NCBI GenBank assembly: GCA_041496945.1
Contig: JBGQFO010000004.1
Coordinates: forward strand, 1 to 55,607
DNA length: 55,607 nucleotides
From: Candidatus Limnocylindria bacterium
Lineage (GTDB): Bacteria > Chloroflexota > Limnocylindria > P2-11E
Direction: 5' to 3'
Of the stretch, positions 2,578 to 31,583 are shown one piece after another. Within the stretch, counting starts at the first letter, position 1. Each line of letters begins with the position of its first letter. A program made the position numbers and the translations under genes. The notes beneath the pieces are model-generated. The model searched no databases, had not been told where the DNA came from, and was given only the letters and a program-made list of their open reading frames with translations.

Positions 2578-4098
2578 CTACTGCGTGCACCGGAGGTCGA
2601 GCGCGCCGGTGACCGGGAAGATCTTCACCGGCCCGCGCTCGATCGGTGCGCCGAGCCACGCGGGTCGCGCGACGCCGCGGTAGAGATCGTCGTACGCGCG
2701 GAAGTGCGCCTCCTCGAGCACGATCGAGCGCGCCTGTGCCGTCGCGAGCACGCACGCTGCGACGTCGAGGCCGTCGGCCGGCGTGACCAGCACGCTGCGC
2801 CCGGAGAGCCAGCGCCACGCGGCCGCGTCGATCGCCAGGAACGGGCCGTCCGGGATGGCGTCGACCGCCGCCGCGCGCACGCGGGCGCCGCCATTGAACG
2901 AGAGGTCCCACTGCGCGAGCGCGCCCACCGAGAGGGCCGCGACGAGCACGGCCGTGCCCAGAGCCCAGACGTTCGCGACCGCAGGCCGTCGGGTCGCGAG
3001 CATCCGCTCGCCGCCGGCCATGGCGATCGCCACACCGAAGGGGAAGAAGGCGGCGAGCGAATGGAAGTACGACCCGCGCGTCGAATGCAACGTCCACACC
3101 AGCGACTGCGCGGCGAAGATCGCCAGGCCGAGCAGCGCCCACGCCCGCACCTCGAGCCGCGACCAGAGATCGCGCATGCCGCGGCCCAGCGGGAGCACCA
3201 GCAGGAGCGCGAAAGCGAAGCCGAACGTCACGGTGTTCGCGACGAGCGCGCCACCCTTGGCGGCGAGCGCGTCGCCCGGCGAAGCGAGGAACGCGTCGAG
3301 CGTCGGCGAGCGGAGCGCGAAGAAGTCCTCATAGCGAACGAGCAGCGCGGCGCGCGCGAGAAGGTCGGACGGCATGCCGACCGAAGCGTTCCGAGCGAGC
3401 CAGGCACCGCCGATGGCGAGGGCGACGAAGGCCGCGGCGAGGCCCGCACGACGGCTCGGCGTCCGCAGCGCGAGAGCGACGAGCGCGAGGCCGAAGAGCG
3501 CGGCTTCTGCCCGCGCGAGATAAAGGAGGCCGACGAGAAGACCCGCGCCGAGGCCGGCCGGTACCGAGCCCGCCGCCGCGGATCGGTAGAAGAGAAAGAA
3601 GAGCGCGCCGAGGAAAGCGGCGGGCGCGAAGCCGTCGAGGCTGACCCAGGCCGGCGCGAACAGGCCACCGAGGCCGACGACGACCGCGCCGAGGAGCGCG
3701 GCGCGGTCGGACGCCCCGAGCGCCCGCACGCAGAGATAGGTGGCGGCGGGCACGAATGCGGCGACGAGGACGATGGCCGCCTGCGCCGCGCGGAACTCGC
3801 CGAGGAGCGGCCCCAGCGCGGCGATCCCGGTGCCCTGCAGCACCGTCGCGAGCGGCATCCAGAACTTGTGGCTCACGATCGGCAGAGTCCCGAGCTCGAG
3901 CGGATTCCACACGAAGTCGGCGCTGAGGCCCGCGCCGTGCGCGAAGCGATCGGCGACGTCGACGTAGTAGTAGGCGTCGGTGTACCCGGGTTGCGCCACC
4001 ACGAGCGCGGTGGCCACGCGCACGAGGAGAAAGACACCCGTCAGCAGGGCGAGCCGCCGGGAGCCAGCGTCCTGCATCAGCGTGGCGAGTCTAGACAC
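2578..4098 (-). CDS. GT-C membrane glycosyltransferase (GT39/ArnT/PMT_2-like)
   Basis: First loop PGYTDAYYYVDVA, then WMPLA, YLARAE, and multiple TMs. Start is GTG 4098 (or ATG 4077). Confidence 0.75.
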   Translation of the reverse strand: MSRLATLMQDAGSRRLALLTGVFLLVRVATALVVAQPGYTDAYYYVDVADRFAHGAGLSADFVWNPLELGTLPIVSHKFWMPLATVLQGTGIAALGPLLGEFRAAQAAIVLVAAFVPAATYLCVRALGASDRAALLGAVVVGLGGLFAPAWVSLDGFAPAAFLGALFFLFYRSAAAGSVPAGLGAGLLVGLLYLARAEAALFGLALVALALRTPSRRAGLAAAFVALAIGGAWLARNASVGMPSDLLARAALLVRYEDFFALRSPTLDAFLASPGDALAAKGGALVANTVTFGFAFALLLVLPLGRGMRDLWSRLEVRAWALLGLAIFAAQSLVWTLHSTRGSYFHSLAAFFPFGVAIAMAGGERMLATRRPAVANVWALGTAVLVAALSVGALAQWDLSFNGGARVRAAAVDAIPDGPFLAIDAAAWRWLSGRSVLVTPADGLDVAACVLATAQARSIVLEEAHFRAYDDLYRGVARPAWLGAPIERGPVKIFPVTGALDLRCTQ

Positions 4099-5326
4099 GC
4101 GGCCTGCGGAGCAGGTCCTCCACGAACGCGGCGACGCCGATCCCGAGGAACGGTCGCGCGGGGAGCGAGAAGCGACCCTCTGCCCAGAGCGGGTATGAGA
4201 GGAGCCACGTCGCGACGATGATGAGGAGCGGGACCGCGAACGCTCCCCCGCCGCGCCGCGCGAGCCGCGCCGCGCCGACCAGTCCCACGCCGAGCAGCAT
4301 GAGGTTGGCGAATACCCAGATCGCCGTGACCGCGGCACCGGCGTGCTCGGGGCGGACCGGGATGTCGCCGGCCCACAGCTGGACCGAGCGCGTGATGCCG
4401 CGCGCCAGGAAGCCGAGTGGATCGTGCGCGATGAGCGCGAGCGCACGCGCGCGCAGCTCGTCGTCGAGCGCCACGAACGCCTGTGCCTGCGCGACCCGAT
4501 CCGCCGTCGCGTCGAAGGAGGCCAGCGCGGCGCGCCCCGAGTCCGCCTGCGCCCGCTCCGTCGGGTCCAGCGTGGTCTCATCCAGACCTTGGAAATACCC
4601 GAGCCACAGCTGCGCCCCGGTGCTGCCGACCAACGGTCGACCGAAGGCCCGCTCGGTGTACGCGACGTAGGGCGAGACTGCGACGACGAAGGTCACGGCC
4701 GCGACGGCCAGCGCCGCTGCGAGCGCGCGGGCGCCCTGCCGCCGCGAGACCGCGAGCGCGGTGAGCGGCAGAGTGAACACGAGGAACGGACGCACCAGCG
4801 TCGCCGCGGCGGCGAACGCGCCGGACGCGACGCCGGTGAGCGCGCGTGGCGCGAGCGCGAGGGTGGACGCGACCGTCGCGACGCCGAGCACCGTCGCGAG
4901 CAGATCGGAGAGCGTGTGCGCCGCGAAGAACGCGTAGGCCGGGTTCAGCGCGACCAGCCCGGCGGCGATCCGCGCCCCGCGCGCCCCAACGAGGGGCGCC
5001 GCCAGACGTGCGACGAGGAGCACGAGCGCACCGAGCAGGAACGCCTGCACGATCGTGACGAGCCACGGCGAGCAGCCGGCGGCGCACAGCGGCGCCAGGA
5101 AGAGCGGATAGCCGGGAAAGCGAAGCGGCTCGGGGATGAACGCCTCGCCGCCGGTCGCCCGCGTGTACTCCCCACGATCGACGAGGCCGCGCGCGAGCGC
5201 GACGTACTGCACCTTGTCGTCGCGGCTCGGATCCCACTCCGGCGCGAGGTACGCGCCGTACGCGATCGCGAGCGCCATCGCCGCGAGCGCGAGTGCGAGC
5301 ACGACGCGGTCCTGTCGGGCGAGCAC
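4091..5326 (-). CDS. GT-C membrane glycosyltransferase (GT39/ArnT/PMT_2-like), 411 aa
   Basis: First loop RDDKVQYVALARGL...EPLRFPGYPLFLA, then TLSDLL, LVRP, and terminal EGRFSLP. Confidence 0.8.
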   Translation of the reverse strand: MLARQDRVVLALALAAMALAIAYGAYLAPEWDPSRDDKVQYVALARGLVDRGEYTRATGGEAFIPEPLRFPGYPLFLAPLCAAGCSPWLVTIVQAFLLGALVLLVARLAAPLVGARGARIAAGLVALNPAYAFFAAHTLSDLLATVLGVATVASTLALAPRALTGVASGAFAAAATLVRPFLVFTLPLTALAVSRRQGARALAAALAVAAVTFVVAVSPYVAYTERAFGRPLVGSTGAQLWLGYFQGLDETTLDPTERAQADSGRAALASFDATADRVAQAQAFVALDDELRARALALIAHDPLGFLARGITRSVQLWAGDIPVRPEHAGAAVTAIWVFANLMLLGVGLVGAARLARRGGGAFAVPLLIIVATWLLSYPLWAEGRFSLPARPFLGIGVAAFVEDLLRRPRV

Positions 5327-5335
5327 CGCAGTGAC

Positions 5336-5397
5336 GGTAGCAACCTACCCGGGAGCCGCGATAGCGGCTCCCGAAGTACAGGCCGAGCAGGCTCGGC
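5336..5397. promoter_or_regulatory. Three consecutive palindromes in a divergent intergenic region
   Basis: GGTAG-CAAC-CTACC (5336-5349), CGGGAGCCGC-GATA-GCGGCTCCCG (5350-5373), GCCGAGC-AG-GCTCGGC (5382-5397). Confidence 0.6.
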
Positions 5398-5412
5398 TCG
5401 TATGCTTCGGCC

Positions 5413-6561
5413 GTGCGTCGCGGACGCGTCGCAGCCGTCGCCGCCGCGGCACTCTACGCGGGCGTCGTGCTCGCGGCCTGGTCCAGCGTCCAGGACGTCA
5501 ACGATTACGCGGGACTCGTCGCGGGCGCGCGCGCGATCCTCGCCGGCGAGTCCCCCTACGACCCCACGACGTGGCCGACCGCGTGGGAGCGACTGGGGAC
5601 CCAGCGGCCCGACACGAGCGTGTACGGATATCCGGCGTGGATCGCGCTCGCGTTCGTGCCGCTCGCGCCCCTGCCCATCCCGCTCGGTTCGCTCGTCTTC
5701 ACCATCGGTACGCTAGCGCTCGCGGCGATCACGGCCCGGGCGCTCGCGCGTCAGGTGGGCGCGGCACCAGGCCCTGCGCTGCTGCTCGCGACCGTGAGCT
5801 GGCCGGCCTTTCTCGTCTTCCTGCAGGGTCAGTGGGACTACCTGCTGTTCGCGCTCGCGGTCGCCGTCTATCTCGACCTCGCGAAGCGGCGTGACGGACG
5901 CGCCGGCGTGTGGTGGTCGCTCGCGCTCCTCATCAAACCCCAGCTCTTCGTCCTCGGATCGCTGGCCCTTGCGGCGTGGCTCGCGCGCGAGCGGCGCTGG
6001 CGCGCGACCCTTACCGCCGCGGCGATCGGCCTCGTCGCGGCGATCGTGTCCGCGATCGCCCTCCCCGGCTGGTGGACACCATGGCTCGGCGCGGTCGCCT
6101 CGCGCCGCCTGGTGCGCTCGACGCAGCAGCCAACGTTCGCGGGCCTGGCGGGCGACATCGCGGGCGACGCCTGGCCGGTGCTCTGGGGCCTGGCCATCGC
6201 CGCGCTCGCCATCCTGATCGTGTGGGCCGCGCGTCGATCGCCGACGCGGGGCGGCGCGGTCGCGTTCTCGGGCTTCCTCGCGCTCTCGGTCGGCGGCGCG
6301 CTCTACTCCTGGAGCTACGACCAGTACCTCTGCCTCGCCGGCGGGATCGTGGCCGTCGGCGTGGCAAGCAGCGGTCCGCGTGGGATCGCGATCACCGCCG
6401 CGACGGGCGTGCTCTTCCTTCCGCTCGCGCTCCTGCTCTGGCTCTCGGCGTTCGCGCGATATCACGACACCGGCTCGGGGCTTGTGCCGGCACTCACGAT
6501 CCTGCTGCTCGTCGCGGCCGTCGGCGTGCGCGCCCGGCTCCGGGGCGCATCGCCGACCTAG
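5413..6561 (+). CDS. GT87/DUF2029-family membrane glycosyltransferase, 382 aa
   Basis: VNDYAGLVAGARAILAGESPYD...YGYP, LQGQWD, LIKPQ, YSWSYD. TATGCT sits 6 nt before the GTG. Confidence 0.85.
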   Translation: MRRGRVAAVAAAALYAGVVLAAWSSVQDVNDYAGLVAGARAILAGESPYDPTTWPTAWERLGTQRPDTSVYGYPAWIALAFVPLAPLPIPLGSLVFTIGTLALAAITARALARQVGAAPGPALLLATVSWPAFLVFLQGQWDYLLFALAVAVYLDLAKRRDGRAGVWWSLALLIKPQLFVLGSLALAAWLARERRWRATLTAAAIGLVAAIVSAIALPGWWTPWLGAVASRRLVRSTQQPTFAGLAGDIAGDAWPVLWGLAIAALAILIVWAARRSPTRGGAVAFSGFLALSVGGALYSWSYDQYLCLAGGIVAVGVASSGPRGIAITAATGVLFLPLALLLWLSAFARYHDTGSGLVPALTILLLVAAVGVRARLRGASPT

Positions 6562-29643: not shown

Positions 29644-30144
29644 GTGAAGCCAACGGGGTTGCGCTCCGCGCAGGAGGTCGTGCCCAGGCTTGGCGCGCAG
29701 GCCGGATTCCCGGCTCTGCGCATCGGCGACGTTTCCGCGTACGACCGTCCCATCGAGCACCTCGCCGGACAGCTCGACGTCCTGGCGCTGAAGGTGCCCG
29801 TCCGCAAGCCCGACGGGCGGTATGGCCTCGTGCTGTGCTTCGCGCTCGAGGAGTGCGATCTCGATCGGCTCGCCGCGGAGCTCGTGCGCATCACGCACGC
29901 CGACGGCGTGCTGTGGGTGGTGGTGTGGAAGAAGGCGCACCTGCCCGGGGGCGCGCCGTCCTGGGACGATGCCCAGGAGACGGTCCTCCGCACCGGCTGG
30001 GTCGACAACAAGATCCTGTCGCTCGGTGACCAGATCTACGCGACGCGCTACGTGCGCCGTCGCCGGCCGGGGAAGATGAGCGCGGCAGCTCCCCCGGGGC
30101 CGGGGGCCGAGCGGGGAACACGCAGCCGCTCCCGATCGTCGTAA
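29644..30144 (+). CDS. DUF3052-like hypothetical protein
   Basis: GVLWVVVWKK...GWVDNKILSLGDQIYATRYVRR resembles the DUF3052 C-terminus. Confidence 0.6.
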   Translation: MKPTGLRSAQEVVPRLGAQAGFPALRIGDVSAYDRPIEHLAGQLDVLALKVPVRKPDGRYGLVLCFALEECDLDRLAAELVRITHADGVLWVVVWKKAHLPGGAPSWDDAQETVLRTGWVDNKILSLGDQIYATRYVRRRRPGKMSAAAPPGPGAERGTRSRSRSS

Positions 30145-30148
30145 GAGC

Positions 30149-31033
30149 GTGAGCGTCCGCGCGCTGCTCTGTCTTGTGCTCGCCGCTCTGGTGAGCGCGT
30201 GCGCAGGCGGCGTCGCCGCAAGCCCCACACCCGCGCCGCCGCCGCTCCCGATGGCCGAGCTCAAGTACCGCGTGATGGACGCGGGCGGTCGGATCAGCTT
30301 CTGCGATCCCGACTTCTACCCCGTCGCGCGGGCCGACGAGAGCGTGCTGGCGAAGGCGAAGATCGGTGAGATCCAGCAGGACACCGAGACGTACGCGGCG
30401 ATCGCAAAGCGCGTCGGGACCGACACGCTCGCCGTCTATCGCGAGTGGAAGGCGCTGAACGCACTGCGTCTTGTGTCCGCGGGTGCGTCCTGGACGTTCG
30501 GCTACCGCTCGACGGGCGATCCCTCTTTCAGCGCGGCCGATCCGAAGGCCGGCGGCAAGCAGATCGAGGGATCGGTCGACACCTACGGGAAGGTGGTCAT
30601 CACCAGGCGGACCGATGCGGGTCCCCTCAACTGCCCGATCTGCCTCGCCCGCGGCACGCGCATCGCGACCCCCAGCGGAGAGCTCGCGGTCGAGGACCTG
30701 CGCGTCGGCGACATCGTCTGGACGCAGGGCGCCCGCGGCGAACGCGTGGCCGCGCCGCTTGTCGCGATCGGCAACACGCCGGTGCCGGACACGCATGAGG
30801 TCGTGCGGGTCGCCCTGGCCGACGGGCGAACGGTGCTCGTCTCCCCCGGTCACCCGACCGCGGATGGCCGGAGGGTCGGCGAGCTGCGCGCGGGCGACGT
30901 GCTCGACGGCGCGGTGATCGTCTCTGCGGAGCGTGTTCGCTACACCGCCGGCTCCACCTACGACGTGCTGCCGGCAGGCGCCACCGGCGCGTACTGGGCA
31001 AATGGCGTGCTGCTCGGGAGCACGCTCCGCTAG
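30149..31033 (+). CDS. Lipoprotein with C-terminal Hint autoprocessing domain, 294 aa
   Basis: Lipobox LVSAC. The Hint domain starts at Cys165 (nt 30641): CLARGTRIATPSGELAVEDLRVGD...SPGHP...TYDV...ANGVLLGST. Confidence 0.85.
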   Translation: MSVRALLCLVLAALVSACAGGVAASPTPAPPPLPMAELKYRVMDAGGRISFCDPDFYPVARADESVLAKAKIGEIQQDTETYAAIAKRVGTDTLAVYREWKALNALRLVSAGASWTFGYRSTGDPSFSAADPKAGGKQIEGSVDTYGKVVITRRTDAGPLNCPICLARGTRIATPSGELAVEDLRVGDIVWTQGARGERVAAPLVAIGNTPVPDTHEVVRVALADGRTVLVSPGHPTADGRRVGELRAGDVLDGAVIVSAERVRYTAGSTYDVLPAGATGAYWANGVLLGSTLR

Positions 31034-31040
31034 GTGCTGC

Positions 31041-31583
31041 TTACCGGGTCAGGTGACCCGGGATCACGGCATCGCTGCGCACGTACACCCGACCGCCACT
31101 CACCGTCAGCACCAGCTCGTCGAGGGACCAGGGGCTTGGGCCGCCGATGCGTTCGCCGGCGAAGTTGTAGATCGAGCCATGACAGACATCGTGGAGCATC
31201 GCCGGGAACGAACCCCATGGCAGCGTGCGCGCCGGAAGGAGCTCGATCTCGCAGCGGTTCCGCGGGTCGACCCCGATGAAGCCGCGAACCTCGTCGCCGT
31301 CGCGGACGAGGTAGACAGGGAGCTCCTTCGACGTGTTGAGTCGCGTAGCGCCGGACCAACCGCCGTGGCGCAAACGCTCCGCCTTGAGATCGAGCCCGAT
31401 CAGCTCCGACGACACGAAGCGAACGGGCACGCCTTGCGGCAGCGCCGCCACGTTCGTGATGGGTACCACCGGATCGCGAGCGAGCTCGTGCGGCAGGAGC
31501 ACCGCGACCACGGCGGCCGCGAGCGTGACCATCCCGAGGACCGCTCCCGTGGCGAACAGCGCGCGGCCGGTCCTGCGTGTCAC
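31041..31583 (-). CDS. Membrane-anchored Rieske-fold protein with degenerate Fe-S ligands, 180 aa
   Basis: N-terminal TM, then DPRNRC and DVCHGSIY...G..IGGPSPWSL aligning to Rieske boxes I and II and the downstream GP motif. Confidence 0.72.
   Translation of the reverse strand: MTRRTGRALFATGAVLGMVTLAAAVVAVLLPHELARDPVVPITNVAALPQGVPVRFVSSELIGLDLKAERLRHGGWSGATRLNTSKELPVYLVRDGDEVRGFIGVDPRNRCEIELLPARTLPWGSFPAMLHDVCHGSIYNFAGERIGGPSPWSLDELVLTVSGGRVYVRSDAVIPGHLTR

Follow-up and report, generated by a model that had tools for sequence, protein, structure and literature searches.

A Limnocylindria lipoprotein with a terminal Hint domain: predicted self-cleavage and homologues that stop at the Hint junction

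The natural roles that Hint and bacterial intein-like (BIL) domains play in bacteria are poorly understood, and the locus described here raises the question of what such a domain does at the very end of a small lipoprotein, and what it would leave behind. The window, a stretch of 55,607 nucleotides (nt) from a Candidatus Limnocylindria bacterium (contig JBGQFO010000004.1 of assembly GCA_041496945.1), contains on its forward strand an open reading frame (ORF) with a GTG start that encodes 294 amino acids (30149..31033): a lipobox, a folded N-terminal domain (N-domain) and a C-terminal Hint domain. It belongs to a large, single-copy and syntenic family of soil Chloroflexota (Limnocylindria), which are abundant but uncultured, and of neighbouring groups, and no description of this Hint lipoprotein family was found in full-text literature searches. 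The original prediction, made from the DNA alone, had read the protein as a lipoprotein with a cleavage-only Hint domain and had suggested an unusual anchoring mechanism by self-processing, in which the new C-terminus is ligated to a wall amine, a lipid or a protein, or cyclised by Cys162 to a thiolactone. According to our analysis, the protein is probably a pro-lipoprotein that matures through Hint-mediated self-cleavage, a reading to which we assign a probability of roughly 60%, and its mature product would most likely be a lipid-anchored N-domain ending in Cys-Pro-Ile. We find no support for anchoring by self-processing, against which some of the data speak, and the present evidence reveals no new mechanism of anchoring.

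The Hint domain and the lipoprotein that carries it

The Hint domain comprises residues 165–294 (130 aa; 30641..31030, on the forward strand like all features of this gene). It matched the Pfam family Hint_2 (PF13403) with 38.6 bits against a gathering cut-off of 28.4 over residues 164–212, and this profile was also matched by 39 of 40 diverse family members. The AlphaFold model of the whole protein (mean predicted local distance difference test, pLDDT, of 84.4) was compared with known structures using Foldseek, in which 40 PDB matches at E ≤ 1e-3, all of them Hint, intein or BIL chains, had a probability of 1.0 and template modelling scores (TMt) of 0.55–0.69; all 49 Foldseek matches with a probability of 1.0 were Hint modules. 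The top matches were the BIL domain of C. thermocellum (2lwy) with a TMt of 0.69 and the Mtu RecA mini-intein with 0.67, and further matches included Hedgehog (1at0, TMt 0.54; 6tyy) and the “redox-trap” DnaE intein 3nzm. Its score therefore makes the protein a member of Hint_2, and its fold and motifs place it in the Hint superfamily.

The N-terminal junction of the domain lies in the motif N-C162-P-I-C165-LARGT, where C162-P163-I164 and C165 are encoded at 30632..30643, with TGC codons for both Cys162 (30632–34) and Cys165 (30641–43). Cys165 is the first Hint residue (Cys1), the early Hint sequence reads C165-LARGTRIATP, and the predicted scissile bond is Ile164-Cys165. The block-B motif S232-P-G-H235, the equivalent of the intein T-x-x-H, is located at 30842..30853 and the block-F motif T270-Y-D272-V at 30956..30967. 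Conservation was evaluated in alignments of 30 close homologues and of 40 diverse homologues with identities down to 37%. In both, C52-D53-x-D55-x-x-P58, Y97, K101, F117, G141, C162, P163, C165 and L166 are invariant, as are S232, H235, D272, Y282, G286 and S291 in the Hint half, while T270 is found in at least 90% of the diverse sequences. The conservation of the CxxC and of the block-B histidine, which had been named as a check of the prediction, is thus confirmed at the protein level, and that of Cys1 also at the codon level: all 109 Hint-bearing loci encode it (TGC in 78, TGT in 31). These 109 were part of 112 scanned junctions, of which two are stops without a Hint domain and one is a TGA with a Hint domain behind it (L006).

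At its C-terminal end the protein reads ...YWANGVLLGSTLR, followed by the stop codon. The block-G equivalent A-N-G-V-L-L-G290-S291-T292-L-R and the stop (30998..31033) include the invariant S291 as well as T292 and L293, both of which at least 90% of the diverse sequences share. G290-S291 align to the His-Asn of inteins and T292 to the +1 position, in a register taken from a partial phmmer alignment to the consensus intein 6dsl, which ends at V287-L288, and extended according to intein block G; only T-L-R lies beyond the Hint core. Neither the sequence nor the model contains a C-extein or a sterol-recognition region, as the protein stops three residues past the core. Judged by these motifs, the Hint half is equipped for an N-terminal acyl shift (Cys1, block-B S-x-x-H, block-F Asp) and not for Asn cyclisation, in agreement with the original description of a cleavage-only Hint lipoprotein.

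The remaining features named in that description, from the lipobox through CPIC, SPGH and TYDV to the ANGVLLGSTLR end, were all located in a codon-by-codon comparison with the DNA. The gene caller annotated a shorter protein of 260 aa starting at M35 (P0001), but the GTG at 30149 is preferred because the homologues keep the signal peptide and the lipobox. The start, signal peptide and lipobox occupy 30149..30202, with a basic n-region, a hydrophobic h-region and then V15-S16-A17-C18, which fits the lipobox pattern [LVI][ASTVI][GAS]C. Cys18, the predicted lipidated residue 1 of the mature protein, does not vary among the close homologues and is kept by at least 90% of the diverse ones. The genome encodes the enzymes for lipoprotein processing, namely LspA (Peptidase_A8, 121.7 bits) and four matches to LGT (124–193 bits). 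Residues 19–34 (30203..30250) form a linker of 16 aa rich in Pro, Ala and Ser that joins the lipid anchor to the folded domain; the model shows it without secondary structure (pLDDT 63–69), and its length differs between the diverse homologues.

The N-domain comprises residues 35–164 (30251..30640). The original prediction had placed a domain of about 145 aa in front of the Hint domain; a folded domain is indeed present, but with the linker set apart its size is about 130 aa. The domain-only AlphaFold model (pLDDT 90.5; predicted template modelling score, pTM, 0.84) consists of four helices packed on a four-stranded sheet. Its invariant motifs are [FY]-C52-D-P-D-x-Y-P, Y97-R-E-W-K101, F117, G141 and the tail C162-P163-I164. 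The domain had no Pfam match among 63 members, NCBIfam gave nothing significant for it with the full-length protein of the window, and a profile search found no sequence match in the PDB. Foldseek returned no significant fold match either, the best E-values being 0.06 (PDB) and 0.016 (BFVD) with TM-scores below 0.3. The confidently modelled N-domain hence has no relative in Pfam or the PDB.

Homologues that end at the residue before the Hint domain

An exhaustive HMMER search with residues 26–164 alone as query yielded 257 representatives after clustering at 50%. Of the best 150 of these N-domain representatives, 16 terminate exactly at ...Cys-Pro-x, and 20 do so if close relatives are included; the final residue of these Hint-less homologues is the one that precedes Cys1 of the Hint domain in the others. 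Nine of these homologues were checked at the DNA level. In eight of them the stop follows immediately after Cys-Pro-x (L005 TAA, L007 TAG, L118 TAA, L119 TGA, L120 TAG, L121 TGA, L122 TGA and L123 TGA) and no Hint coding sequence lies downstream. The ninth, L006 (a Logan contig of SRR32799305), has a TGA at 1845–1847 precisely in place of the Cys1 codon; behind it a complete Hint domain continues in frame that looks undecayed and is 54–60% identical to its relatives. This could be the loss of a Hint domain caught in the act, or an assembly error. TGA, which is one base away from the cysteine codons TGY, accounts for five of the nine stops.

In a maximum likelihood tree of the N-domain, the Hint-bearing and Hint-less states require 15 changes, and the strongly supported branches force at least seven. 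A single Hint-less clade was rejected by the approximately unbiased (AU) test with p = 1.8e-25. The column of residue -1 was omitted from this tree, and a quick tree agreed with it. In one Hint-less clade the ...CPL-stop end is retained by members that are 68–92% identical to the query P0178 and stem from separate metagenomes, and the truncated form is therefore stably inherited. Since at least seven independent lineages have exchanged the whole Hint domain for a stop at the junction, proteins with a plain ...Cys-Pro-x-COOH end are evidently functional, and since the Hint-less proteins have no possible thioester and yet keep their N-domain under selection, a modification that depends on the thioester is dispensable. 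A stop at Cys1 is an evolutionarily acceptable substitute for the Hint domain. The simplest account is that the Hint domain cuts between Ile164 and Cys165, that the N-domain up to residue 164 is the functional product, and that a nonsense mutation on the Cys1 codon directly yields the same product as cleavage and has been tolerated many times. The junction may also be the sole position at which a truncation spares the N-domain and leaves no uncleavable stub.

The residues around the junction differ in what they do after the loss of the Hint domain. An Ile at position -1 is found in 64 of the 69 representatives with a Hint domain but in only 4 of 16 Hint-less ones, in which V, L, I, R, T or N occur, as expected if this Ile is constrained by Hint catalysis. 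Cys52 (30302..30304), Cys162 and Pro163, on the other hand, stay invariant in the Hint-less homologues, and because Cys162-Pro163 are retained there, we assign them to the N-domain and not to a CxxC unit. These stops in independent lineages provide an unusually clean evolutionary read-out of where the Hint domain cuts and of what it leaves, and they lead to the predictions that the mature lipoprotein ends in Cys-Pro-Ile and that the Ile at -1 is needed for catalysis only. Together with the sequence and the predicted structure, they support the cleavage-only reading of the Hint domain.

Several observations on individual loci accompany this pattern. In L121 (3167–3240) the frame after the stop reads PAAHTQIDAPQCG, a stop codon and ILVIHLRVS, and resembles Hint residues 3–23 of the nearest Hint-bearing relative (AAHTLIDTPNGPVAVEDLKVG). 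The likeness is in frame and in register (AAHTQIDAPQ versus AAHTLIDTPN), its tblastn E-value of 0.31 is not significant alone, and the stretch may be a decayed relic of a Hint domain; no other relic was seen downstream of the stops in the Hint-less loci. Three short homologues (P0218, P0220 and P0226) end in ...CPICTT(H) or ...CPICGARCR and thus carry the second cysteine and 2–5 further residues without a Hint domain; these may be natural ends or fragments. In L123 (1–1384, reverse strand) the Hint-less P0240, which ends in ...MCPL, is divergently oriented to a neighbouring gene for a membrane protein of 534 aa that is Rce1-like/CPBP (CAAX-protease family). This adjacency was seen in one locus and may be coincidence; L124 begins at the gene itself.

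Proposed maturation and alternative explanations

Cleavage itself, its hydrolytic resolution and the disulfide pattern are inferred, and the proposed course of maturation is as follows. After export, Cys18 would be lipidated by Lgt and the signal peptide cut by LspA, which would place the protein on the outer face of the membrane. The C-terminal Hint domain would then fold, and Ser232/His235 and Asp272 would drive the N-to-S acyl shift of the Ile164-Cys165 bond onto the thiol of Cys165. As the protein lacks a terminal Asn, a C-extein and any region that could recruit an adduct, the thioester would most likely be resolved simply, by water or a small thiol. The products would be a free Hint domain of 130 aa and a lipid-anchored N-domain ending in ...Cys162-Pro-Ile164-COOH. 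Cys162 is kept in proteins without Cys165, and Cys52 is equally invariant, for which reason a C52-C162 disulfide is the more likely stable pairing of the mature protein. In the precursor, Cys162 may transiently bond to Cys165 and delay cleavage in oxidising surroundings.

Some points weigh against this maturation by self-cleavage. The Hint_2 alignment covers only positions 1–45 of the 147 profile positions, which indicates a divergent subfamily. All family members stem from uncultured metagenome-assembled genomes (MAGs), and cleavage is inferred in every one of them. The N-domain tree is unrooted, and the direction of loss rather than gain is read from L006, the excess of TGA and the weak relic in L121. 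Mean pairwise identity is 0.53 in the Hint domain versus 0.37 in the N-domain; this stronger conservation exceeds the needs of a disposable appendage and hints at a further role, be it transfer chemistry, a function after release or gating. It is also puzzling that a domain that removes itself is retained at all when a stop gives the same product.

The stronger conservation and the puzzling retention of the Hint domain leave room for extra thioester chemistry. As in Hedgehog proteins, the Cys165 thioester could be resolved by a membrane lipid, a wall amine, a protein, or by Cys162 or Cys52 as a thiolactone or internal thioester, by which the N-domain would gain a second anchor or a reactive C-terminus. 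The layout, with a lipidated N-domain in front and the Hint domain at the C-terminal end, parallels Hedgehog, a thiol (Cys162) lies three residues upstream of the thioester, and a Hint domain more constrained than its N-domain suggests that it does more than fall off. However, the at least seven independent lineages with a stop at Cys1, where no thioester is possible, keep the N-domain, Cys52 and Cys162-Pro, which argues that no such modification is essential to the function of the N-domain and speaks against the ligation to wall amine, lipid or protein that had been proposed. With only three residues past the Hint domain there is no recruiting region, sterol-recognition-like or other. Nor does the setting offer a conserved partner gene: the genes for ATP synthase, CorA, the S9 peptidase and DUF72 lie on the opposite strand, and the 141-aa ORF next to the gene is unannotated (see below). 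The proposed thiolactone of Cys162 fares no better, since the Hint-less forms keep Cys162-Pro163 together with Cys52, so that Cys162 is not primarily a partner of Cys165, and a ring from Cys162 to Ile164 would be a strained one of ten members. We consider thioester transfer unlikely as an explanation, and ligation or cyclisation merely added in the Hint-bearing lineages is about as unlikely or slightly more so. The specific version, in which these lineages pass the thioester to a defined acceptor and thereby form a doubly anchored or “armed” lipoprotein from which the Hint-less forms are derived, has a small chance of being correct.

Redox gating would be a regulatory layer over self-cleavage and not an exclusive alternative to it. 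An oxidised disulfide between Cys162 (-3) and Cys165 (+1) would block the N-S acyl shift, and the Hint domain would be shed under reducing conditions only. In the CPGC of the engineered Ssp DnaE trap (PDB 3nzm) and in the native Pab MoaA intein, N-terminal cleavage is held up by such a disulfide and requires its reduction (Callahan et al., 2011, as cited in PMC3922620). The spacing is the same here, 3nzm is among the fold matches, both cysteines are invariant and the protein is extracytoplasmic. By this analogy, a transient C162-C165 disulfide that makes cleavage conditional is plausible. The invariance of Cys162-Pro163 in homologues without Cys165 nevertheless points to a role independent of the Hint domain, probably together with Cys52, and gating as such is a tentative proposal that we regard as doubtful. 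It is improbable that the Hint domain is non-catalytic, i.e., a binding or structural module of a protein that works uncleaved, with Cys162-x-x-Cys165 as a redox or metal-binding CxxC. The short homologues that retain ...CPIC and 2–5 residues without a Hint domain and the limitation of the Hint_2 alignment to the first part of the profile are in line with this view, but the conserved residues are the exact catalytic set, residue -1 relaxes after the loss of the Hint domain, and the truncated homologues end at -1 and not at varied positions, as a cleavage site predicts and a CxxC does not.

The TGA in L006 finally allows selenocysteine to be considered at Hint position 1 in some relatives, as it lies exactly on the Cys1 codon in front of a complete, undecayed in-frame Hint domain. 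This is a single case among the 112 junctions, of which 109 carry TGC or TGT. In its folding, the RNA downstream does not surpass shuffled sequence (z = -0.96), and it shows no fold resembling a selenocysteine insertion sequence (SECIS), TGY becomes TGA by one base change, and in four other loci TGA is not followed by a Hint domain. For L006, an assembly error or a nonsense mutation that has only just arisen is far more probable, selenocysteine is highly improbable even for some relatives, and as a general explanation it was rejected on account of the lone case and the z-score.

Distribution, genomic setting and comparison with known systems

A word-indexed protein search returned 1,928 clusters (90% identity) at E ≤ 1e-3, of which the few named ones belong to MAGs of Candidatus Limnocylindria or Chloroflexota and are called “Hint domain-containing protein”. 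In the species genomes of GTDB, 418 loci were found, and the best 80 of the 418 are nearly all from Limnocylindria or Chloroflexota MAGs, with a minority labelled as Dormibacterota, Eremiobacterota-like or Anaerolineales and a few under the names of other phyla, possibly through mis-binning. The distribution is patchy, with a high-scoring copy (E ≤ 1e-40) in about 32 of 401 sampled Chloroflexota genomes. The genome of the window has a single copy of the family and a single copy of Hint_2, for which reason a paralogue or polymorphic-toxin context was rejected. Synteny was checked on two other long contigs, L002 and L003 (L004 repeats the protein of L003), and both keep the gene order ATP synthase operon, CorA, Hint gene, S9 peptidase, DUF72 and glycosyltransferase. 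In most loci the Hint gene is alone on its strand, with the CorA/ATP synthase and S9 peptidase/DUF72 neighbours on the opposite one. The genomic context is neither mobile nor toxin-type. No conserved partner gene that would give a functional link was found, the sole conserved neighbour on the same strand being the unannotated ORF of 141 aa.

In the window this neighbour is part of an ORF of 166 aa (29644–30144, forward strand) that stops 4 nt ahead of the GTG of the Hint gene, so that the two may be translationally coupled. The first 141 aa of this ORF recur in 32 of 117 loci (about 69–78% identity in the hits inspected), directly upstream and on the same strand in the loci inspected, while L002 and L003 have a response regulator on the opposite strand instead. 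The ORF had no Pfam match even at E ≤ 10; it may be DUF3052-like. Downstream, an ORF of 180 aa (31041–31583, reverse strand) converges with the Hint gene across a gap of 7 nt. This ORF is without a Pfam match but has a motif, ...DVCHGSIYNF..., that recalls Rieske box II, and it is conserved downstream of the gene in 12 related loci. Locus L093, from an uncultured Chloroflexota MAG, contains two family copies (2890–3876 and 5084–6154) about 1.2 kb apart. Their Hint parts are identical from CPIC to the last few residues (...LLRSTLER versus ...LLRSRLRP), their N-domains clearly differ and the second copy is split across two frames; the Hint part may have been duplicated recently or homogenised by gene conversion, or the assembly may be at fault. 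Hint matches in other Chloroflexota genomes (G199, G232, G354, G166 and others) lie inside ORFs of about 800–2,500 aa, and these very large ORFs look like a different, surface- or toxin-like architecture unrelated to the lipoprotein family.

The overall layout of the protein is Hedgehog-like, with an N-terminally lipidated, secreted N-domain and, C-terminal to it, a Hint domain that would cut at Cys1 via a thioester. Unlike Hedgehog, it has no sterol-recognition region, its junction is Ile before Cys-Leu instead of Gly before Cys-Phe, and a bacterial diacylglyceryl thioether is expected in place of palmitate. Its N-domain is unrelated to Hedge, with no match in Pfam or the PDB, and, as the Hint-less homologues demonstrate, it can do without an adduct at the C-terminus. 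The best structural matches, the A-type BIL domain of Clostridium thermocellum (2lwy) and the Mtu RecA mini-inteins (3igd/2in0), with TMt of 0.66–0.69 and 20–29% identity, keep the C-terminal His-Asn and perform C-terminal cleavage or splicing, whereas the Hint domain of the window has Gly-Ser in this place. Canonical class 1 inteins differ further in that the window protein has no C-extein and no conserved host protein, and in that its Hint-less homologues end at -1 and do not run on into a C-extein. The redox-trap inteins share the C-P-x-C spacing over the N-terminal junction, both cysteines of which (C162 and C165) are invariant here, but they are cytoplasmic and splice, while the lipoprotein is extracytoplasmic and predicted to cleave only, and its Cys-3 is kept after the loss of the Hint domain. 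The protein is neither an intein nor a Hedgehog protein.

Polymorphic toxins with HINT, e.g., MafB of Neisseria, are likewise secreted bacterial proteins with an autoproteolytic Hint module. In these toxins the Hint domain lies upstream of a C-terminal toxin, which it releases. In the protein described here, in contrast, nothing lies downstream of the Hint domain, the genome contains one copy and no neighbour is immunity-like. The nearest relationship is that to Hint_2, which we take to be the class of the B-type BIL domains: both have the Hint fold, Cys1 and the block-B and block-F motifs but no C-terminal His-Asn, and N-terminal cleavage is the expected chemistry. B-type BIL domains contain the intein motifs save the C-terminal one and cleave at their own N-terminus (PMC7765530), and BIL domains have been described in proteins that bacteria secrete and that are not conserved (Amitai et al., 2003; Dassa et al., 2004, both as cited in PMC7765530 and PMC5874633). 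The window protein differs from them in that its Hint domain, of a divergent Hint_2 subfamily, always forms the end of a small lipoprotein, which is single-copy and syntenic and has a novel N-domain, and is not part of a large, variable surface or toxin protein, in its invariant Cys at -3 and in its Hint-less orthologues that end at -1. A compact Hint domain of 130 aa, predicted to be cleavage-only and with a native Cys-3/Cys1 pair, could also interest protein engineers. The protein thus belongs with the known bacterial Hint/BIL autoprocessing proteins, among which it is noteworthy for the recurrent replacement of the Hint domain by a stop at the junction and for its unclassified N-domain.

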